Virus record (IMG/VR): IMGVR_UViG_3300009194_000004
Location: 111,439-131,438 of that record
Direction: 5' to 3' (one strand)
Origin: an uncultured virus (IMG/VR IMGVR_UViG_3300009194_000004)
Taxonomy: Duplodnaviria > Heunggongvirae > Uroviricota > Caudoviricetes
DNA: 20,000 bases
Positions within the stretch are counted from its first letter, which is position 1. The number at the start of each line of letters is the position of its first letter. Below are positions 1 to 16,481 of this stretch, piece by piece. Under the pieces are notes generated by a model. The model made no database searches and was not told the origin of the DNA. It worked only from the letters and a program-made list of their open reading frames with translations. Position numbers and translations under genes: made by a program.

Positions 1-750
1 GTCTTTATAGGTTATTGCCGGGTCGAAAAACCGCTTAACCTCAGGCTGATTAAGTTGGTACTCGATATCATTTCGATCAAAATTAATCGGCAGACCAAGT
101 GTTTTCTTCAACCTAAACCCATTGTAGAAAGCCGCCATTCGACGCTTAACAAAATCCCTAGCGCAGGATATCCACAACATGTGTTCAATTTTCTTAGAAA
201 GTTGATCTACATGCGGGTCAGCGTCGTCAAAATCCACACTTAAGGAGTGAGCCAAGAGTGTTTCATAGCTCAGGTGTTTTTTGAGTTCCGAACAATACCC
301 ACTACCATGTTTCGAACCCGCGTAAAAGCGTTTCGTGTCGTCCAGTGTTGGAGCCGGAAGCTGGTCAGCGTAATGATCGTAAGCAAACCCCCTAACTCGA
401 ACAAAACGATGGTGTATGTAGAAGGTCCTCAGGATTGCGTGGATGATTTCCACCGGCATCTCAGGATACACCGCTCGATAGTGGGTCACCACTAGCTGGT
501 ACATGTCGTCAATGTCCAACATTAACCACACGTCGCCTTCAGTAAGAATCAATGTTTCCATGAATGTAGGTAGGTCGCCAAAAGCATCCAACGCTTCTTC
601 GAGGTTGGTGAATTCCATGAGTCCTTCGGGATGGAATTCATTTTGAGTATGCGTACGGTCGTCCAGATAAATGTACGAGTCGGTTGGTTGTTTCAGGTCA
701 ACGCTCGTAAATGCAAAGTCCGCCCGGACGTCATCAATTAAGTGCAGCAT
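1..750 (-). CDS. Hypothetical protein, 3'-truncated by the window edge (>=250 aa); paralog of 753..1802
   Basis: Translated by hand, not in the ORF track. ATG at 750, 2 nt after the stop of 753..1802, open to base 1: MLHLIDDVRADFAFTSVDLKQPTDSYIYLDD...LMEFTNLEEALDAFGDLPTFMETLI...LKKHLSYETLLAHS...DPHVDQLSKKIEHMLW...GFRLKKTLGLPI. Colinear blocks match the neighbouring protein. Confidence 0.85.
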   Translation of the reverse strand, partial: MLHLIDDVRADFAFTSVDLKQPTDSYIYLDDRTHTQNEFHPEGLMEFTNLEEALDAFGDLPTFMETLILTEGDVWLMLDIDDMYQLVVTHYRAVYPEMPVEIIHAILRTFYIHHRFVRVRGFAYDHYADQLPAPTLDDTKRFYAGSKHGSGYCSELKKHLSYETLLAHSLSVDFDDADPHVDQLSKKIEHMLWISCARDFVKRRMAAFYNGFRLKKTLGLPINFDRNDIEYQLNQPEVKRFFDPAITYKD

Positions 751-752
751 GG

Positions 753-1802
753 TTATGTTTCCTTTGTTGGGGACAGGACCATATCTGAAATCTTTACAGG
801 CGTGACTGAATGCAGGTAACTGAATATAAGGGAGCCTGTTCCCCATAATGCATCGTCGATACCGAAGAATGCACTCCACGGACGCTTCCGGTCGGCGTCA
901 ATCAGCTCGATGAATTCGTCGTGTGTGATCTCATGGTCCTTCAAGAAGAAGCTAACGGCGAGCTCCTTGAAGTCCTCTACAATGTTATTGCGTTTGTTGT
1001 TAACGCTAATAGCGTGGTGGATTTTCTGGGCGTTAGCTGCAGTTATCTCATTAAGTGATTCATCAAACCCCAGCGCTTCATCCAGCTTTGAGATTTGTTC
1101 CTCGATGTCGTCCGCCAGCGGATCGATATCTAGGTCTAGGTTTTTCTTTAGACCGAAGATTCCTAATAACAGCCTACGGCGCCATGTGGTGTAGTCAGTC
1201 ACCAACATTTGCCACAACAACGCTTCCATCCGTCGTCTAAAACAGATGACATAAGGATCTGACTCAGAATAGTTACACGCATGTGCGTGAACCATAAGGT
1301 ATTCAATAGAAACGTTCTCTTTTACCAAATCGGAGAACTCACCATTTACTCCCGCCTCTTCGTACCAAATGCGCGTCTGCATTGGTGTCGGGACTGTAAG
1401 TCCGAGTCTACCCTCACGATTAATGCTCGCGCGGGTGGAAAGGCGAATCTGGCTGTATTTTTGGTCGATCGTCACCATTCTCAAGAACCGATGTGTGTTC
1501 TCAAGCGTGATGTTTGGAAAAATACCACGCAAGAAATGAACGTAAAAACGGTTTAGATCTTGCTCGTCGATGAACGCCGTGACATCACGACCACTGTGAA
1601 TAATGGATTCGATGAATCCATTTATACCACCAGGGGCGTCTATAAGCACATCAAGATTGGGGTACTTCATCAGCGGAGTTGCGTCTTGAGAAAAAGCCTT
1701 AGACCCGAGGGAGTTAATATAAACAATATCTTTCGGGTTGGCCCTAGCGTTCGGACTGGAAAATGAGTAATCAAGCGACAGGCCGTTTGTCAACCGGATC
1801 AT
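753..1802 (-). CDS. Hypothetical protein (349 aa) in the radical SAM cassette
   Basis: Long ORF; ATGA start/stop overlap with the 180-aa gene at 1799-1802; no catalytic motif recognised; paralogous to 1..750. Confidence 0.85.
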   Translation of the reverse strand: MIRLTNGLSLDYSFSSPNARANPKDIVYINSLGSKAFSQDATPLMKYPNLDVLIDAPGGINGFIESIIHSGRDVTAFIDEQDLNRFYVHFLRGIFPNITLENTHRFLRMVTIDQKYSQIRLSTRASINREGRLGLTVPTPMQTRIWYEEAGVNGEFSDLVKENVSIEYLMVHAHACNYSESDPYVICFRRRMEALLWQMLVTDYTTWRRRLLLGIFGLKKNLDLDIDPLADDIEEQISKLDEALGFDESLNEITAANAQKIHHAISVNNKRNNIVEDFKELAVSFFLKDHEITHDEFIELIDADRKRPWSAFFGIDDALWGTGSLIFSYLHSVTPVKISDMVLSPTKET

Positions 1803-2341
1803 CGTCTGCTCCTTGAACCGTGGCAGTTGCTGTGGCAGTTCGAATGACAGACTGACAGATCCACGATCTCACCGTTGTGAATGCGTTCATATAACTCGTT
1901 CTGAACTGTTTGGATCAGGTCGGATAGATTTGACCGATCAGCATCGTTTCGAGTGGAAATGTAGGTCGGGTCACCACCGGCGGTTTTCAAGCTGTGTATG
2001 CTCTGGCGGTAATTATTGTTCAGTGCTGCAATACCCCACTCTTTATCGTGATCGCCGTTTGTGTAATTACTGCCAGAATAATGACGCGCGGTGTAAACCT
2101 TGCGCATTGAAGTACAACGTTCCGCTTCGGCTTTGATCACGTCAACAACGTTACTTGCATCGACATCTCCGGTGTTTGCATCAGTACCCCTATCAAAATG
2201 AGACAGTTCCACCAGCGGACTTTGGTCCATGTACTTGTCGTCCCGGGCAGAACCCTTCCACCATTTCGCTTGGTCCTTGGCGTACTGGTTGATGTTGTTA
2301 TTGACAGCCGCGTGAAAATCACTCCGTTTTAAATCAGCCAT
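1799..2341 (-). CDS. 180-aa protein with C-terminal CHSNCHSNCHGSRSRR motif; putative radical SAM substrate or virion accessory protein
   Basis: Starts 1 nt after the rSAM stop and overlaps the next gene by ATGA. Three Cys-His units at 4-residue spacing at the extreme C-terminus. Function is inferred. Confidence 0.8.
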   Translation of the reverse strand: MADLKRSDFHAAVNNNINQYAKDQAKWWKGSARDDKYMDQSPLVELSHFDRGTDANTGDVDASNVVDVIKAEAERCTSMRKVYTARHYSGSNYTNGDHDKEWGIAALNNNYRQSIHSLKTAGGDPTYISTRNDADRSNLSDLIQTVQNELYERIHNGEIVDLSVCHSNCHSNCHGSRSRR

Positions 2342-2342
2342 G

Positions 2343-3479
2343 TTAGAATACCTCTACAACTGGGATCGTTTTTGTATCCGAAGTCAGCGCGGACGGCTCT
2401 TTCTCATACCGAATGCCTTCCTCACCCATGAACCCATTGAGTACTTCCTTCAGGATGTCCTGATCGGTGTTTTTCATGGACCGCATCATGGACTTTGGAG
2501 AAGCACAGATATCGCCCTGCCAATTAAGTTGATGACAATCGCCATTACAAACGTCAAATACGTCACAACTGAAACAGACTTCGTTCAGGGTGCTTTCGGT
2601 TGCAATGTTACATCCACGTCCTTCCGAGAACACGATATCTGAAATGGTTTGATCCAAGGTTCCGAACGTCGTCTCAGGGGCGCCATTGGGACACCCGCCA
2701 ATGGTACCATCGGCGTTCAGGGTTAGAATCTTCTGTTCGCATTCCCGACTACGGCACCCGGAAAACGTATTGAATACAGTGCTGGTCAGCAGGCTTTCTA
2801 GGAACATGTTCAAGATCTTTTCGTACGCCTTGTGTTCCAACGTCTGTTCCCACATTTTCAAGAACCACGCGTCCAACTCCAGATTGGTAGGAAAAATACC
2901 GGTGTTCTCACGGGCGTTACCATTCTCAGTGATGCGTTCAAAGTTGATGAACGCAACCCCAAGGTTGGTCATCTTGTTGATCAAGTCGATTGGCTCAACA
3001 TCCATCAGGTCTTTGGACACGCAAATCATGACCGTGACGTCTATGCCTTCGGCCACTAACTTACGGACGTTTTCTTCCCACAGCGCTTCTTGGTTGCGGT
3101 TCCCTTGCCAACGGATGCTGTAATCCCAGGATGTCCCGATTGAAGTTCCTGCCACTTTCTTCAGAAACGCCAGTCGGTCATCTGTCAGCTTATACGTCAG
3201 GTTGGTTTGAATACCCCATGTCAAGTTATCCCAGAGTCCATCCAGCTCATCGTAAACCTTTTCCATTTTGTCCAGCGGGCAGAGCATCGGCTCGCCACCA
3301 TGGAACGAGATGTTGGCGGAACGGAAGGTGGGGAACTGAGCTTTCAGTCGGTGAAAGAAGTCAATGGTGGCATCCGGGTCAAACCAACCCTTCTTCCCGT
3401 TGGTACCACTTGTGAAACAGTGCTGGCAGTTTAACTGGCAAGTTTCGGTAGTTTTCAGGTAGACCATTAAATCACGCAT
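2343..3479 (-). CDS. Radical SAM protein with C-terminal SPASM domain (378 aa)
   Basis: CQLNCQHC (CxxxCxxC), FHGGEP, IQTN, SWD, and a SPASM Cys array CRSREC...DGTIGGC...CFSC-x5-C-x3-C...C. Start moved from 3656 to ATG 3479 because GAGGA precedes it and the longer version crosses a terminator and overlaps the upstream gene. Confidence 0.93.
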   Translation of the reverse strand: MRDLMVYLKTTETCQLNCQHCFTSGTNGKKGWFDPDATIDFFHRLKAQFPTFRSANISFHGGEPMLCPLDKMEKVYDELDGLWDNLTWGIQTNLTYKLTDDRLAFLKKVAGTSIGTSWDYSIRWQGNRNQEALWEENVRKLVAEGIDVTVMICVSKDLMDVEPIDLINKMTNLGVAFINFERITENGNARENTGIFPTNLELDAWFLKMWEQTLEHKAYEKILNMFLESLLTSTVFNTFSGCRSRECEQKILTLNADGTIGGCPNGAPETTFGTLDQTISDIVFSEGRGCNIATESTLNEVCFSCDVFDVCNGDCHQLNWQGDICASPKSMMRSMKNTDQDILKEVLNGFMGEEGIRYEKEPSALTSDTKTIPVVEVF

Positions 3480-3536: not shown

Positions 3537-3570
3537 AAAAAAAGCAGCAGTGGGCTTACACCCACTGTGC
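3537..3570 (-). terminator. Intrinsic terminator at the end of the tail-fibre genes
   Basis: Minus strand GCA-CAGTGGGT-GTAA-GCCCACTG-CTGC-TTTTTTT: 8-bp stem with one G.U pair, GNRA loop containing the TAA stop of 3556..4485, then T7. Confidence 0.8.
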
Positions 3571-4485
3571 CGGCCAAACGACCTTCCAACCACCGTTGAC
3601 GTAGGCTTGCAGTTGATTGTTACGGACCCGCAGACTGGTCTCGTCTGTAGAACCAATTCGCACGTAACGCCCGTCGTGGTGATTCACGTTCGGGTTAGCG
3701 TGGGTGGCAAGTGCGACACCCACGGCGTGTGGTGACATGTACCGGGTTTTGGTGGACATGTCCGCCGCCTGGGTATCCGTGGCCATTTTGTAGTTTTCGA
3801 CGTCCCCCAGTCCCACCTGGGCCTTAGTAACCTTGTGTGGGTTGGTGCCGTCTTCCATGTGGTCGACCAAGCGGTTCTCGACTCGGTTTCGATCTTCGGC
3901 TGCTTCTTCAAACAACATCAACGCGTAGGCACGCGTTTCATCGTGAAGTGCTTGGTCACCAGCCATGATCGCCTGAACAATCCGTTCCAGTTCGGTGACA
4001 ACCGGCTCAAACCCATACAGTTCCCACAAGGCGTGCAGGTGGCCAGCCGCTGGGTACTCGTTAGGCTTGCCGATGATGTTGGCCCACTCCACGGGCCGAT
4101 CTTCTTCAGCCAGTGTGTCGATCACCTGCTGGAGTGCGTCGGTTGAAACTGCAAAGTCTCCACCCACTACCTGGTAATCCAGGAACACACTGGTCGAAAC
4201 ATTGGGGTTAACAACGATGATCGCCCCACAGACTTCCAGACCGCTTCGGGTCGTGGCCCGTTCGTACAGGTAAGTGGCGATATAATCATCGCCCTTACGA
4301 AGCTCTGCACCTGACACATCCCGGAGGACCATGTCGCGGGTGTAGAACCCGCCGTAATTGGGAACCAAGACCCGGTAGTTACCGGTGGTCACGGCGGCGT
4401 CCAGATCGTGTCGCTCGCCCAGGATGCGGTTATCCGGATTCCGGCCCGTCAAATCCAACGGGTATTTGTTAACAATGAGTGACAT
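3556..4485 (-). CDS. Virion structural / tail-fibre-type protein (309 aa) with one phage tail repeat
   Basis: NPHKVTKAQVGLGDVENY repeat (PTR-like), HHDGRY fibre-type motif, C-terminal YVNGGWKVVWPAQWV. N-terminus YPLDLTGRNPDNRILGE is homologous to that of 4502..6148. GGAG RBS. Confidence 0.8.
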   Translation of the reverse strand: MSLIVNKYPLDLTGRNPDNRILGERHDLDAAVTTGNYRVLVPNYGGFYTRDMVLRDVSGAELRKGDDYIATYLYERATTRSGLEVCGAIIVVNPNVSTSVFLDYQVVGGDFAVSTDALQQVIDTLAEEDRPVEWANIIGKPNEYPAAGHLHALWELYGFEPVVTELERIVQAIMAGDQALHDETRAYALMLFEEAAEDRNRVENRLVDHMEDGTNPHKVTKAQVGLGDVENYKMATDTQAADMSTKTRYMSPHAVGVALATHANPNVNHHDGRYVRIGSTDETSLRVRNNQLQAYVNGGWKVVWPAQWV

Positions 4486-4501: not shown

Positions 4502-6148
4502 TTAGGCTTCAAGTTGGGCGGACGCGTCATCGAATGCCGCAATCAGGGTGTCCGTGACGTCTTGGGCACCGGCACCGACGGTGGGAATCGGTGTCCGACC
4601 ACTTCCACGGGTTGGGTAGTACAGACCAGGATCGGGCAGGAACTGACCTGTCGGTTGACGCACTGGGATGAATGTAATTCCTTCAGCGGGAACGTTGGTC
4701 ACATCCAGTGACAGTTCCATGACCCGCTCAGCGCCGGTACCGGTGATACCCAACATGAAATCCCGCATGGGCGGGATGCCGTTCAGTGTGGTTATGTTTA
4801 CCGTTTCGTTTGTCCAGTCGGCTTCAATACTAACCCACGCTTTACGTCCATCGGGTCCTGGTACGCTACCAAGCATGTGAAGGGGTTCGTCGGTTTCACT
4901 GAGGTGATAAAACGGCAGATGTTCATCGCGTCCGAAACTGTCTCCAGAGGTGAAGTCCCAGGTATACGTTGCGAAATACACAAATTGCGTGTACATGTCG
5001 TCCTTGATGTCACCATACGTCATGTTCTCCAGCATTTGGGAGTTAGCAGCCGTGCCCAACAGGATGTCCTGTTTCAACCCTTCGAGGGTCATCCCAAATG
5101 TCCGGTCGGTGTCGTAAGCGGTACCATCGACCCGGAGGTAATTCTGCAAGATACCGTTGATGGTATCCATGCTGATTGCGCCGATATCCGCAGCGGTAAT
5201 TCCGTGGGGGTTATTGGTGTCACTGAAATGCGGTTCCAGAACCTCGTCCTTGAGGGCTTGGATGACCACCTCTACCAGATACGGGGTCATGTACCGGTCG
5301 TTACGGGTCCCGTCATACGCTTCGCCCGGTGTGGCGATTCCGAAGTTCTGTACTAGCGAAAGACCTACGTCGGCTTTATCAGTACCGTGGGGGTTGTCGG
5401 CGTTCAGGTGTTCGTCAATTTCCCGTTGTACAGCTGCCCCTACAGCAACGTCCGTCGACTTCGGTGACATATAACGGTCACTGCGGAGTCCTTCGGCTGC
5501 CTCGGTCTCGTTGGCCATCGGGAAGTTTTGTACGTACTCCAGCCCCACCTGTTTCTTGGTGACCATGTGAGGGTTGTCCCGACTGTTCATGTGGTCGGTT
5601 ACAGTCCCCGCTTCCGTATCACCCAGTGCACGATTGATATCACCGATGGCTTCAACCACTTCTTCGAAACCGATCAGTTCACCGGTGCCCTGATCGTGTG
5701 GGATCGGTGGGAACAACGCCGGGAGTGTGTCAATCTGACTCCATGCGCGAGTCAATGGGTTGACAGCTTTATTCGACAGCTCTTCCAATACGGCTTGATC
5801 TGAGAAGCCCCAGTGACCCCCGATGGTTTGGTAGGTCATGGACACAATACCACCGATATCGCGACTCAGGAAGCGCAGAGAACCTGCCAGAGCCTTACCG
5901 GTGTTGTTGGAGCCTTCGGGGAAATAGTGACCAAAGAGAAAGTCACGTCCTTCCTTATACAGACGACCAGTTGCTTGGTCACGGATCTCAAACGACTCCA
6001 CGTAAAACGGAGCCGCCTGAGGGATGATGAAATAATAGTCATCCCGGCCAGGGACCTGCAGGGTCTGCAACTCCCCATCGATTTTGTTTGCCGGGTTGGT
6101 ACCGTACGGGTCGAACTCGTACAGTCCCGTGGTGTTTACAGTAGCCAT
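4502..6148 (-). CDS. Virion structural / tail-fibre-type protein (548 aa), phiKZ gp131-like family by recall
   Basis: Repeats NPHMVTKKQVGLEYVQNF, NPHGTDKADVGLSLVQNF and partial NPHGITAADIG; the two full repeats are followed by DRYMSP / DRYMTP. N-terminus YEFDPYGTNPANKIDGE. AAGGAG RBS. Confidence 0.8.
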   Translation of the reverse strand: MATVNTTGLYEFDPYGTNPANKIDGELQTLQVPGRDDYYFIIPQAAPFYVESFEIRDQATGRLYKEGRDFLFGHYFPEGSNNTGKALAGSLRFLSRDIGGIVSMTYQTIGGHWGFSDQAVLEELSNKAVNPLTRAWSQIDTLPALFPPIPHDQGTGELIGFEEVVEAIGDINRALGDTEAGTVTDHMNSRDNPHMVTKKQVGLEYVQNFPMANETEAAEGLRSDRYMSPKSTDVAVGAAVQREIDEHLNADNPHGTDKADVGLSLVQNFGIATPGEAYDGTRNDRYMTPYLVEVVIQALKDEVLEPHFSDTNNPHGITAADIGAISMDTINGILQNYLRVDGTAYDTDRTFGMTLEGLKQDILLGTAANSQMLENMTYGDIKDDMYTQFVYFATYTWDFTSGDSFGRDEHLPFYHLSETDEPLHMLGSVPGPDGRKAWVSIEADWTNETVNITTLNGIPPMRDFMLGITGTGAERVMELSLDVTNVPAEGITFIPVRQPTGQFLPDPGLYYPTRGSGRTPIPTVGAGAQDVTDTLIAAFDDASAQLEA

Positions 6149-12178: not shown

Positions 12179-14434
12179 TTAGGCGGTTTCACCTTTTTCT
12201 TTTTCTTTTTCTTCTTTTACTGCATGCTGTTTGTGGGTTTTGATGAAATACTCCAAAGTTGAAGCGTACGCTTTTGCTGTGGAAGCAACGTAAGCATGGA
12301 AATCACCTGTCGGTTTGACGAAGTTTCGGACGAGTTCGTTGAGGGTACGAACCGGAAGGTTGGTTCCGGCGCCGACCAACAGCTCGCCAATAGAAGACGG
12401 ACTCTTGCCGTTATTTTCATCCCTGACGATCTTGAACGTAACGTCGACCTTATCCGAAGACATCTTTCTACGGATCTGCTCGTACTTGTCTTGAGCGTTT
12501 TTCGAGTCCTCAAGAACCTTGACAAGAGTTTCCATGGATTTAAGCATACCCTTGATTTCATCCATGGATGGCAGGTCAACCGCGTCCATTTCCGGATTTG
12601 TACCTGTATTTACAGGCACGAAATCGAAGTATGAGAACTTACTCAACGACGGGTTATTATTCCCCTTCACGAACGATTCGATACGCGTCTGGGGTTGTAC
12701 CCACAAGACCAGCGCACGATCCCCTGGAAGGAGTGAGGAGCGTTTGATGCCCTCATAGCCCTTAACATGGTCGGGCAGATCCGATGCCTTTACATCCGTA
12801 GACCCAGGCAGTGGTTTAATGTGTTTCTGCGGGAGCATGAACAGTTCCCGAGCCGTCAGGTCCATAGTGGCTTTCAGGTCCTTTGACTTTGAGAAGTCGG
12901 TCGACATGATGTCGATGCCTTCTTTTATCATGCTCTCGTATTGGCGTGGGTATTGATTGAACATGTAATTAGACACGTCAATCATTGCCTTAATGGTCTC
13001 TGGTTTTGTGGGTCCGAATACCCCGGAAACCATCAAACGTTTACCGCCTTTAACATTTACCTTCTTACTGCCAGCTCCGGACTCAATGGACTCAACTTCT
13101 TTCTTAAGCTGATCCAGTTTCTTCTTGGTACCGGCGACGTCATCGTTGAATTTACCCCAAATGTGCCGGAGTAGTTCAAACAGTTTTTCCATCGCCTTCT
13201 TGCCGGCAGCGATGGTGGCTTTGAAGCCCGACTGGACGCTTTCCAGAGACACCTGGGTTGCGTACTGACGCGAGCTGGTCTGACCGAACGCTTCATTGGA
13301 GGGAATCAGCTGATCGCCACTGAACGACTCGTCCATATGCTCAAGACCAATGCGGATGGACTCGGCGGTAATGGAATCAATACCATCGCCACGTTCCAGA
13401 GCTTTGGTGAGAAGTGAATGGTAGGCTTCCAGAGACTCGCTCACTTTATCAAAATGGGCACCGTCTTGAGCGACCTGGTTCATGTCCTCGACCATCTTCT
13501 CTTCCGGTGAGGTAATGCCCACATCCAGGGACTCGTCTTCTTCGGCGCTGACGGAAACATCACCCTCGCCTTCACCGCTGGCTTCTTCGGTACCCTTGGT
13601 GTCGGCCGACACGTCTTCTTCCGGCTTGGGAACGTCGTGTTGCGGACCTTCTTTTACTCCACCGGTAGTTTCGGCTTCGCCGGATTCGGTTTCTTCGGAC
13701 ACTGTCACCGGCTGATGTTCAACATCACCGTTTACTTCGGCGTCACCGGCGGTTTCTTCTTCCGGATCACCGGCTTCGGACTCCACGTCGTCAGCTTCAG
13801 AGACCGATTCTTCTTCGGCTTGGGCTTCAGCTTCCGCAGGAGCTTCTTCAGCGGGTCCTTCTTCGACCACCGGTGTCTTACCGGCTTCTTCCTCTTCACC
13901 GCCTTCTTCGGCGTCAGAGGCGGGTTCTTCGCCAGACTGCTCGTCCACTTCTTCTTTTACAGCTTCGGCATCGTCGGAAGAGGCTTCTTCTTCCTGCTCG
14001 CCATCATCAGAAGCTTCTTCCTCGCCAGCTTCCTCTTCTTCCTCACCGGCTTCGGATTCTTCGCCGTCTTCTTCCTCGTCCTTTTCTTCAGACTCTTCGT
14101 CTTTCTCGTCGGAGTCATCGTCGGAGGACTCTTCCTCTTCCTCACGCTCCTCTTCTTCGTCCTTTTCCTCTTCCTCCTCTTCTTCCTTGCTGTCCTCGGA
14201 GGAAACAGTCACTTTCTGGTGACCTTGGTCTTTGGTCGTATGTTTCGGAGCGTCGTCGGACGCCGCGTCGAGCTCCGCTACCGCCGGCTTGGCTGTATCC
14301 GCATCACCGCTCTGTTCATTGCTGGCGTCAGAGAAATCGTCTTTCGGGGTTTCGCCGTCCTGAACAACAACCTTCTGATCTTCGTTGTTGTCTTCGTTAC
14401 TGGACGTCAGCCATTGCTTGATAAATCGAGACAT
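12179..14434 (-). CDS. Probable internal head protein with long acidic N-terminal propeptide (751 aa), phiKZ gp162/gp163-like
   Basis: First ~310 aa are Glu/Asp-rich and low complexity. Many S/A/G-x-E sites, including ATQVSLE|S at residue 398, followed by a Lys-rich globular region. GAGGAG RBS. Family assignment from recalled architecture and synteny with spike and sbcC. Confidence 0.7.
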   Translation of the reverse strand: MSRFIKQWLTSSNEDNNEDQKVVVQDGETPKDDFSDASNEQSGDADTAKPAVAELDAASDDAPKHTTKDQGHQKVTVSSEDSKEEEEEEEKDEEEEREEEEESSDDDSDEKDEESEEKDEEEDGEESEAGEEEEEAGEEEASDDGEQEEEASSDDAEAVKEEVDEQSGEEPASDAEEGGEEEEAGKTPVVEEGPAEEAPAEAEAQAEEESVSEADDVESEAGDPEEETAGDAEVNGDVEHQPVTVSEETESGEAETTGGVKEGPQHDVPKPEEDVSADTKGTEEASGEGEGDVSVSAEEDESLDVGITSPEEKMVEDMNQVAQDGAHFDKVSESLEAYHSLLTKALERGDGIDSITAESIRIGLEHMDESFSGDQLIPSNEAFGQTSSRQYATQVSLESVQSGFKATIAAGKKAMEKLFELLRHIWGKFNDDVAGTKKKLDQLKKEVESIESGAGSKKVNVKGGKRLMVSGVFGPTKPETIKAMIDVSNYMFNQYPRQYESMIKEGIDIMSTDFSKSKDLKATMDLTARELFMLPQKHIKPLPGSTDVKASDLPDHVKGYEGIKRSSLLPGDRALVLWVQPQTRIESFVKGNNNPSLSKFSYFDFVPVNTGTNPEMDAVDLPSMDEIKGMLKSMETLVKVLEDSKNAQDKYEQIRRKMSSDKVDVTFKIVRDENNGKSPSSIGELLVGAGTNLPVRTLNELVRNFVKPTGDFHAYVASTAKAYASTLEYFIKTHKQHAVKEEKEKEKGETA

Positions 14435-15152: not shown

Positions 15153-16481
15153 TTACTCAATTTTCCAAAAATCCGAACTATAGCCCTCAGCTACGCCATT
15201 AACAATGGCATTACCGCCATGGAAATAAAAAACGCCATCCATCATCGCATAAGCAGGAACCTGTCGGATCGGTATAGTGGGTGGTGCACCCGTTGGCTGT
15301 TTCAATAGAACTTCCCGCCAACGGAGGTCCGCCGGGTTGAATTCCCAAAGGTCGTTGTATCGATCGTCGTCCCCGGAGGTGTTGTTGCCACCATTACCAC
15401 CAAATACATAGAGGCGCCCGTTAAATGCACCGGCGGCGTGTCGGTTTTTTTGGGGAACTGAATTAACGGTAACAACTTCGGACCATTCATCCGTATCCGT
15501 ATTAAAAACCCATAGTTTGTCTTGATACGTATTTTGTATATCCCCACCGAATACATAGAGTTTATTCCCGATACGCGTCATCGTGTGCTCTTTAAGTAAT
15601 GGGATCGGATCAGGCAATACTTCCCATGTACCAGCGGCTACGTCGTACCGGTAAAACGACGGGTTTGGGTTTGTAGGGTCGTTATAACTGGCAGACCCGC
15701 CATGGATATAAATACGTCCCTGGGCATCAACAGCAGATGCATGAAACATAGTCGCCACTGGGCCGTTTGGCAACGATTCCCACTGAGCATTTTGGAAATT
15801 GTAACGACGGAATTCGGCAAGAGGCGTCCCACTTTGTGTTCGAGTACCCCCATAAACCCAAAGGTATCCATCGGTAACCACCGCTGAGTGATCCACTATA
15901 GTGTCGGGAAAAGGCGGTAACTTTGACCACACCGAACCATCGAATTTGAAAAATTCAAGGTTACCACCAGTAGAGTGCTGTCCCCCGAGAAGGTACAGTT
16001 CGTTTTCATAAACCGACAATGTGTGTCGGCGACGCGGTGTCGGACCTTCGGTAAGTTCAGTAGCTATGCCGTTAACGCGGTTGTCGTAATTTATGGGCGC
16101 TGTATAAGGATCATCGCCTATGTTGATACGATACATCCGAACACCATCATCCACGTAGTACAGCCGTCCATTTGGTGGGGAGAAACATAATGTCATCGGA
16201 CGTAAAAATGCATCCTCGCCGTAATATGGACGACTTGTGTAGCTTACGCCATCGTATTCATGGAGTAGGTTCGTCCGTGCATCGAAGATACGTTCGTACC
16301 GCTGTGTTTTTAAATTGGCAAGTTCTACGTACTTTTCCGCGACTGGTAGCATTGCCATTGGCTCACCCCCCGTCACCGAAAAAGGGACTGACGGGTCATT
16401 GACAAATAGAACACCACCGATTGGTACCTCATCTTTTTTAGCTTTAACGGTGCTAAAAAACCTAGCTAACGCGTCTTTCAT
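15153..16481 (-). CDS. Kelch-repeat beta-propeller protein with N-terminal shared module (442 aa)
   Basis: Six Kelch-type repeats: LYLLGG, LWVYGG, IYIHGG, LYVFGG, LYVFGG, FYFHGG, the first five followed by Y/F-x-W segments (e.g. FYRYDVAAGTW). ATGA overlap with the upstream gene. Confidence 0.9.
   Translation of the reverse strand: MKDALARFFSTVKAKKDEVPIGGVLFVNDPSVPFSVTGGEPMAMLPVAEKYVELANLKTQRYERIFDARTNLLHEYDGVSYTSRPYYGEDAFLRPMTLCFSPPNGRLYYVDDGVRMYRINIGDDPYTAPINYDNRVNGIATELTEGPTPRRRHTLSVYENELYLLGGQHSTGGNLEFFKFDGSVWSKLPPFPDTIVDHSAVVTDGYLWVYGGTRTQSGTPLAEFRRYNFQNAQWESLPNGPVATMFHASAVDAQGRIYIHGGSASYNDPTNPNPSFYRYDVAAGTWEVLPDPIPLLKEHTMTRIGNKLYVFGGDIQNTYQDKLWVFNTDTDEWSEVVTVNSVPQKNRHAAGAFNGRLYVFGGNGGNNTSGDDDRYNDLWEFNPADLRWREVLLKQPTGAPPTIPIRQVPAYAMMDGVFYFHGGNAIVNGVAEGYSSDFWKIE

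Follow-up and report, generated by a model that had tools for sequence, protein, structure and literature searches.

What becomes of a small jumbo-phage protein that ends in three Cys-His units and a basic terminus, and what does it have to do with the radical SAM gene directly in front of it? The question was raised by a stretch of 20,000 nucleotides (the window) from an uncultured virus of the Caudoviricetes (IMG/VR record IMGVR_UViG_3300009194_000004, positions 111,439 to 131,438). The record (G000) is a 131-kb linear virus contig, and its phage tail genes match those of phiKZ-like phages. [quoted passage not shown] We refer to this putative modification site as the tail and to the whole product as the tailed protein; the family consensus is CHxS-CHxS-CHxS-RGRR. 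A sequence-only reading of the window had described three Cys-His units at period 4 followed by a basic end, and this description was exact. It had further stated that the repeat codons differ and that the protein contains a single additional Cys. Both statements were confirmed: the minus strand reads TGT CAT TCG AAC / TGC CAC AGC AAC / TGC CAC GGT TCA / AGG AGC AGA CGA TGA from 1849 to 1799, and one of the four Cys lies outside the tail; units 2 and 3, however, share the 9-mer AACTGCCAC. In six frames of the 131-kb record, CH..CH..CH was observed once, with 0.00009 occurrences expected. The differing unit codons and this chance expectation ruled out slippage or a chance repeat as the origin of the tail.

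In the 11 homologues identified first (26–76% identity), neither the first two CH units nor R-x-R-R varied. A profile search, carried out on a library without a word index, revealed the ending CH..CH..CH..R.RR in 137 of the best 150 hits, the other 13 being variants or truncations, and gave 881 clusters at 50% identity. Among 387 nonredundant tails, 368 had three CH units and 376 the RxRR end, whereas the 19 tails departing from three units had 0, 1, 2, 4, or 13; as tail sets of this kind were partly chosen by the motif itself, the fairer test is one that starts from the enzyme. Viral contigs scanned with a DNA pattern gave at least 123 matching stretches, and in-frame matches always represented a protein C terminus. 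The tail was thus retained in homologues, as the sequence-only reading had expected, on bodies that are ~20% identical (length range 124–434 aa), and judged by this conservation it is strongly selected.

The tailed gene starts two bases behind rSAM1 (2343..3479, minus strand; PHROG 1802), which encodes a 378-aa radical SAM/SPASM enzyme without an N-terminal RRE, with CxxxCxxC at residue 14 and eight Cys in the SPASM region. It is followed on the minus strand by two of the three paralogues in this genome of a ~350-aa cassette protein, the family of which was found in 128 loci (copy 1, 753..1802; copy 2, 1..750, continuing past the window edge). Beyond the window, the cassette comprises copy 3, a 250-aa protein, rSAM2, a divergent rSAM, rSAM3, a 230-aa protein, a 2OG-Fe(II) oxygenase, rSAM4, and a 139-aa protein. 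A JmjC-like cupin precedes rSAM1 in most loci, with none in the available part of the window genome. Eight conserved C-terminal Cys were counted in rSAM1 and rSAM3, seven in rSAM2 (in 111 sequences), and four each in rSAM4 and the divergent rSAM, both of which have divergent motifs. In an NCBIfam scan, the cassette enzymes stayed below every maturase cut-off (best 66 bits versus 349, TIGR03942), so the chemistry can be assigned by analogy alone. An anaerobic sulfatase maturase was rejected on this TIGR03942 score and on the body, which had no sulfatase match; the last tail unit alone resembles C-x-x-x-R, which we take to be the sulfatase motif. The 250-aa partner was not RRE-like and gave nothing significant in a fold search (Z 3.5 to the rSAM ChlB), and an Atlas search with the ~350-aa protein yielded no usable lead.

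Cassettes vary in content. An optional gene for a B12-binding radical SAM protein is present in some (L208 7585-9426, L243 18129-19856, and many viral loci, there encoding 520–610 aa), with none in the cassette of the window genome. At L004 (1197-3227), a 676-aa collagen-like Gly-Pro-x repeat protein is encoded downstream of the cassette. In a second class (L005, L027, L034, L067, L080, and similar loci), a tandem pair of ~127-aa tailed genes precedes at least five divergent radical SAM genes, and record G005 carries both classes. That the tandem short class is enzyme-free was ruled out by its divergent rSAM neighbors and by an rSAM1 further away in four of five records.

The linkage between tail and enzymes was followed from both sides. 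Starting from the motif, 78 of 80 large viral loci had a tailed ORF (L042 and L048, which lack one in frame, were left out of the forward count), and rSAM-family genes were present in 78 of these 78. Starting from the enzyme, the full tail was found in 76 of 80 viral loci; in the other four, the contig ended 240–1210 bases after rSAM1, with a cut-off body homologue present. Close rSAM1 loci from bacterial and archaeal bins (n = 43) had a canonical tail in 28 cases, a variant in eight, and none in the available DNA, several pieces of which were short, in seven. A tail was found in one of 25 distant rSAM loci. The tail gene and the radical SAM/SPASM enzymes are genetically inseparable, and it is almost certain that the co-encoded enzyme set either acts on the tail or serves it.

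Most of these bacterial and archaeal bins belonged to Bdellovibrionota. Because the cassette has housekeeping flanks there and lies on contigs of up to 2.8 Mb, this sequence context identifies it as chromosomal in this phylum; of 301 Bdellovibrionota genomes sampled, 12 gave a match, which was strong for 10. A few other bins, labeled Rickettsiales, Rhodobacteraceae, Methanobacteriota, and others (L215, L221, L227, L229, L231, L233, L248), appear to be mis-binned phage contigs. In a quick tree, the group formed around the window rSAM1 (SH-aLRT 97) comprised Bdellovibrionota and some viral copies and not the RSF1-like enzyme. The same gene order was found in Ralstonia phage RSL2, the T4-like Agrobacterium phage Atu_ph07, and Pseudomonas phage pPa_SNUABM_DT01, and the whole kit occurs in the cultured phages Atu_ph07, Phosso, pPa_SNUABM_DT01, and the RSL2/RSF1 group. 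A contig of 231,818 bases (L020, L129) with an identical tailed protein and cassette is a longer assembly of the window phage or of one nearly identical to it. A search of sequencing runs listed none of RNA.

Cys and His did not vary in any of the 362 canonical tails, and the three Arg were likewise fixed. Position 4 was Ser in 328 and Asn in 19 of these tails; all three units read HxS in 242, and both Asn, as in the window protein, were present in eight. Across 555 positions of 185 distinct tails, which include related and hence nonindependent ones, His+2 was Ser (438), Asn (74), or Ala (28), and Gly and Thr were counted zero times. His+1 was free (Ser, Gly [83], Ala, Thr [64], Asn, Tyr, and others). 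The repeat unit is C-H-x-[S/N/A], and the Asn residues of the window protein represent a minority form of the H-x-S unit. With Asn in the minority at His+2, His-Asn was ruled out as a family rule. Thus, of the His-Asn cyclophanes or Cys thioethers proposed in the sequence-only reading, an aromatic-X-X link and a thioether are both still plausible, but the Asn is not conserved; and the period of 4 that was said to separate the tail from the His-Xaa-Ser system is real, but the HxS unit is closer to that theme than had been allowed. Since neither Gly nor Thr was found at His+2, although both occur at His+1, an unbranched C-beta seems to be required at this position. By analogy, the absence of Gly fits His-to-C-beta cross-links; links from His C2 to C-beta(Ala) at i+2 are described for HaaB in the available text of PMC11002830. 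The Ser/Asn preference could instead reflect a turn or capping requirement. Among departures from the canonical tail, the variant at L246/L333 (4310-4918) has one Cys, two being lost, and period-3 H-S-S repeats before RGRR, and may form a bridge to HXS-type repeats; four Bacteriovoracaceae tails keep the first and last CH only, with a Pro-rich spacer between them.

By the sequence tests run, the cassette would work like the HXS, CrpC, and triceptide systems and is a member of none of them. In the HXS antiphage system, HxsA is matured by HxsB/HxsC with HxsD, and the modification was mapped to S-H-R-S-S (accessible sections of PMC13128918), a motif that the tail unit brings to mind. Both systems use a full-length protein, His-x-Ser repeats rich in basic residues, and more than one radical SAM enzyme. 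As far as those sections describe it, however, HXS is a bacterial periplasmic defense with a peptidoglycan-binding domain, whereas the tailed protein is phage-encoded and present in particles; HXS repeats have a period of 3, whereas the units of the tailed protein carry Cys, have a period of 4, and lie at the extreme C terminus. The cassette enzymes scored 26 bits versus 370 with TIGR03978 and 12–27 versus 268 with TIGR03977, and no small cassette protein matched HxsD in a scan. The triceptide (3-CyFE) systems of HaaB, YhhB, XncB, and MscB share with the cassette SPASM enzymes and a sequence in which an aromatic residue and a C-beta-bearing residue at i+2 occur three times; according to the same portion of PMC11002830, their precursors are short leader-core peptides, whereas the tailed protein is folded and each of its units opens with an invariant Cys. 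The cassette enzymes reached 11–38 bits with the 3-CyFE families XyeB, FxsB, YhhB, AmcB, and GrrM (cut-offs 310–450); rSAM1 by itself scored 20–38 bits versus cut-offs of 370–450.

A third comparison is offered by CrpC of Methanococcus voltae, a seven-Cys SPASM enzyme with an open iron that forms protein thioethers on CrpA (PMC13692751, the available part of which contains no mention of phage). CrpC/CrpA shares with the cassette a SPASM enzyme, a Cys-rich C terminus behind a folded N-terminal domain, and the seven-Cys count of rSAM2. By analogy, the SPASM domain of rSAM2 would be suited to thioether formation, with a similar iron ligation presumed. As described in that part of the paper, CrpC has an RRE and works as a single enzyme on a target without His repeats, whereas the cassette enzymes begin at the rSAM core (motif at residue 11–33) and number four to nine. 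Cut-offs of the ranthipeptide synthase families (PapB, SCIFF) were not reached (PapB 35 bits versus 340 at best). Of the named Atlas clusters, the nearest (score 0.81, 19% of members; a weak lead) was the CXXX-repeat system TIGR04114/TIGR04115 (Pfam PF27846), in which, as in the tailed protein, Cys recurs at every fourth residue of a target encoded beside radical SAM genes; none of 19 tailed proteins matched TIGR04114, and rSAM1 scored 23.6 bits versus 350 with TIGR04115.

A different kind of precedent is the T-even gp37-gp38 pair, in which a small variable tip adhesin is encoded behind a fiber with a self-removed C-terminal chaperone. The tailed gene likewise lies behind a trimeric-type fiber, its product is present in particles (one homologue), and some homologues carry Gly_rich_2; gp38, however, needs no enzymes, and its fold may differ from that of the body, for which PDB searches gave no match beyond Z 4.3 or E 0.001. 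No description of the tail or cassette was found in a literature search that covered few subscription journals. In their available parts, PMC8066314, PMC11898562, and PMC7029224 list such radical SAM genes and give no function, PMC12801897 concerns another gene, the supplement of PMC5468394 contains annotation rows only, and PMC10769870 treats S74 fibers of Bdellovibrio without the cassette. The word 'radical' is absent from PMC7824862.

AlphaFold2 modeling with 85 sequences predicted the body as a three-helix bundle plus a beta-hairpin (mean pLDDT 80.9), with the tail at low confidence. Fold searches matched only uncharacterized viral proteins, including a 296-aa Atu_ph07 protein; in PDB fold searches, weak rows below the above limits (Z 3.5–3.9) pointed to phage baseplate wedges. 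A Pfam scan of the window protein (P0001) gave no family and in particular no peptidoglycan-binding domain. Part of the body fold is shared by 500–660-aa proteins of Myoviridae sp. ctijX18 (BFVD A0A8S5USJ7, A0A8S5USV2, A0A8S5USJ8). In some loci, the tailed gene is split in two by a Gly_rich_2 domain that lies behind the first helix, or this domain is fused in front (L187, L190, L192, L196, L011, L285; P0047). Such variable length and Gly-rich insertions would be expected of receptor-binding parts.

The virion data come from one phage, Atu_ph07, and a PEG preparation (PMC6102473, of which the available portions, including Table S5, are cited here). The homologue gp170 was identified with eight peptides (35% coverage) in bands 1–9 and was most abundant in band 1; its computed mass of 31.89 kDa equals the table value. 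The products gp164–169, 171, and 172, which include the cassette enzymes, are absent from the virion list. By our own count from that table, 2 of 39 listed proteins of 25–40 kDa with at least two peptides peak in band 1. The upstream fiber gp176 (66 kDa) peaks in band 4 with 50–56-kDa proteins, which fits the loss of its C-terminal domain (52.5 kDa computed without it), and this position near the size of a cleaved monomer argues against wholesale covalent attachment of gp170. Because the gel loading buffer as described contained no reductant, the band shift of gp170 is no proof of a radical cross-link; disulfides or an SDS-stable oligomer would account for band 1 equally well. Modified peptides are not listed in the MS table. 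Since the predicted body is a folded domain and gp170 is found in virions, it is improbable that the tail is excised as a peptide. Of the 'selected core peptide' in the sequence-only reading, selection is borne out by the conserved tail, and the core peptide has become doubtful. That the tail is modified and retained on the virion protein is, in our view, fairly likely.

On the window's minus strand, rSAM1 is preceded by a fiber pair, namely a 548-aa tail protein (4502..6148; PHROG 13857) as first gene and a 309-aa tail-fiber-type virion protein (3556..4485; PHROG 2163) with the tip motif W-x-x-V-W-P-A-Q-W at about 3559..3588. Elsewhere in the window, the minus strand encodes a 751-aa protein whose N-terminal third is very acidic (12179-14434) and, among tail genes, a 442-aa kelch-type propeller with weak matches to NanM/YjhT mutarotase models (15153-16481). 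In 110 tallied rows, the gene before the cassette encoded a chaperone-type (YADLAE-like) fiber in 75 and a W-P-type fiber in six by rule and several more by eye, and in 15 no upstream gene was in view. The last 60 aa of the window fiber matched 15 cultured-phage records, its N-terminal part 151. These 15 comprised 12 cassette-bearing chimalliviruses and three RP12/RP31 records, in which a cluster of another kind, with three annotated radical SAM genes, occupies the same place. In RP12/RP31 (L347; RP12 NC_041911.1 81074-89152), the same fiber tip motif is followed by a 125-aa His-Thr-His-containing protein. No tailed-protein homologue was detectable in RP12/RP31, and RP12 gp74 was not supported as one (hhalign probability 0.9%); the cluster is possibly a parallel system.

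With the chaperone-domain cleavage site inferred from a motif, 62 fibers would end in A-x-[YFW]-[AS] (Ala-4 in 53, Tyr/Phe-2 in 62, and Ala-1 in 60), and the W-P-x-Q-W type in a similar A/P-x-aromatic-A tip; a Pfam S74 scan of the chaperone-type domains gave no match. The fiber tip motif is a candidate docking site for the tailed protein. The Bdellovibrionota cassette often adjoins prepilin-S74 genes and a ~200-aa protein with little beyond a similar tip motif and a chaperone-like domain (L212, L220, L226, L234, L240, L243, L247). The fiber cap suggested in the sequence-only reading gains indirect support from the upstream chaperone-type fiber, the tip co-distribution, and the Gly-rich fusions. 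Against a fiber link in the window genome counts a putative terminator, a hairpin with a T run found by pattern match between the fiber gene and rSAM1 (3548..3567, minus strand); six such hairpins were found in the region versus 2.8 expected. The tailed homologues of Bdellovibrionota had no evident signal peptide, which leaves their export unexplained by the proposal below. A location of the tailed protein at the fiber tip is about evenly balanced for us, if anything slightly doubtful.

We tentatively propose that unrelated lineages of large phages have a portable host-contact module in common with predatory Bdellovibrionota: a set of four to nine radical SAM enzymes would build a cross-linked Cys-His unit (His-C-beta cyclophanes and thioethers, perhaps metal-binding or interchain) on a fiber tip protein; as a whole we rate this reading somewhat below even. 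Co-occurrence shows that the tail gene and the enzyme set travel together, and one homologue occurs in particles as a high-mass species resistant to SDS, with the enzymes absent. In the chemical steps, an eight-Cys SPASM enzyme (rSAM1 or rSAM3) would take H from the C-beta of the Ser, Asn, or Ala at His+2, and this C-beta would be joined to the His ring, giving three small cyclophanes. The seven-Cys rSAM2 would bind the Cys thiols and form thioethers within or between chains, and the free-ended RxRR may serve as recognition handle in place of a leader. For the His-C-beta chemistry, which is argued from analogy, we see roughly a one-in-a-few prospect that is real and rather doubtful. On the particle, the variable body would be the host-contact part and dock on the conserved tip of the trimeric fiber, and the cross-linked tail would rigidify or lock the assembly and may hold metal.

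An unlikely alternative is that the tail is a metal site, with Cys3His3, an Fe-S cluster, or another cofactor assembled by the radical SAM set, possibly as a pseudo-threefold fiber cap. His-bound iron occurs in phage fibers, the neighboring fiber is of the trimeric type, the Cys and His never vary in canonical tails, and two of the five enzymes keep four C-terminal Cys and divergent motifs. A plain site, however, would not need four to nine enzymes, and ligation does not explain the ban on Gly at His+2. The pseudo-threefold Cys3His3 set of the sequence-only reading draws on the prevalence of three units (368 of 387) and is weakened by tails with 1, 2, 4, or 13 CH units; the 2-, 4-, and 13-unit tails, the Cys-lost His-Ser-Ser tail, and the two-unit Pro-rich tails all occur with the same enzymes.

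Slightly less likely again, the tail might be a tag for recognition or coupling that the chemistry links to another chain (for example, to the terminal Tyr/Trp of every fiber protomer) or to further copies of the protein as a polymer. The band 1 position of gp170 would agree with this, but gp176 peaks near monomer size (both from the available portions of PMC6102473). Three units would match three protomers, and both fiber types end in an aromatic tip after predicted chaperone removal, but that cleavage site is motif-inferred and Pfam S74 misses those domains. In the least probable case, which we consider very improbable, the body would be the large leader of a classical RiPP and the modified 16-mer would be cut off as a diffusible toxin, signal, or metallophore. 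A variable N-terminal part ahead of an invariant C-terminal core, the low-confidence tail of the model, and the large number of tailoring enzymes (among them, in some loci, oxygenases and B12-dependent rSAM) would suit this, but the leader is usually the conserved part of a RiPP, whereas in this family it is the body that varies and has domains inserted. No protease, transporter, or RRE was recognized in a scan of the cassette, no conserved cleavage motif but a beta-strand pattern precedes the first Cys, and the body is in virions, although the virion peptides reported in the available portions of PMC6102473 could all derive from it.

The proposed module of radical SAM enzymes and fiber tip protein bears on a large family of 881 clusters, in which the target is a 16-residue invariant tail. 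Full-length protein maturation by radical SAM enzymes is represented by few cellular cases (HxsA, CrpA, QhpC), and none was placed on a virus particle in the literature found. New here are the rule for His+2, the Cys counts of the SPASM domains, the fiber-tip co-distribution, and the gel-band comparison. As the kit is present in cultured phages, MS on particles that already exist can test the chemistry directly. If true, the proposal would yield at least four new enzyme reactions and would explain the radical SAM clusters that appear without a function in jumbo-phage papers. It would also link the adhesion of phages to that of predatory bacteria, with RiPP-type chemistry finishing a virion or a predator appendage.
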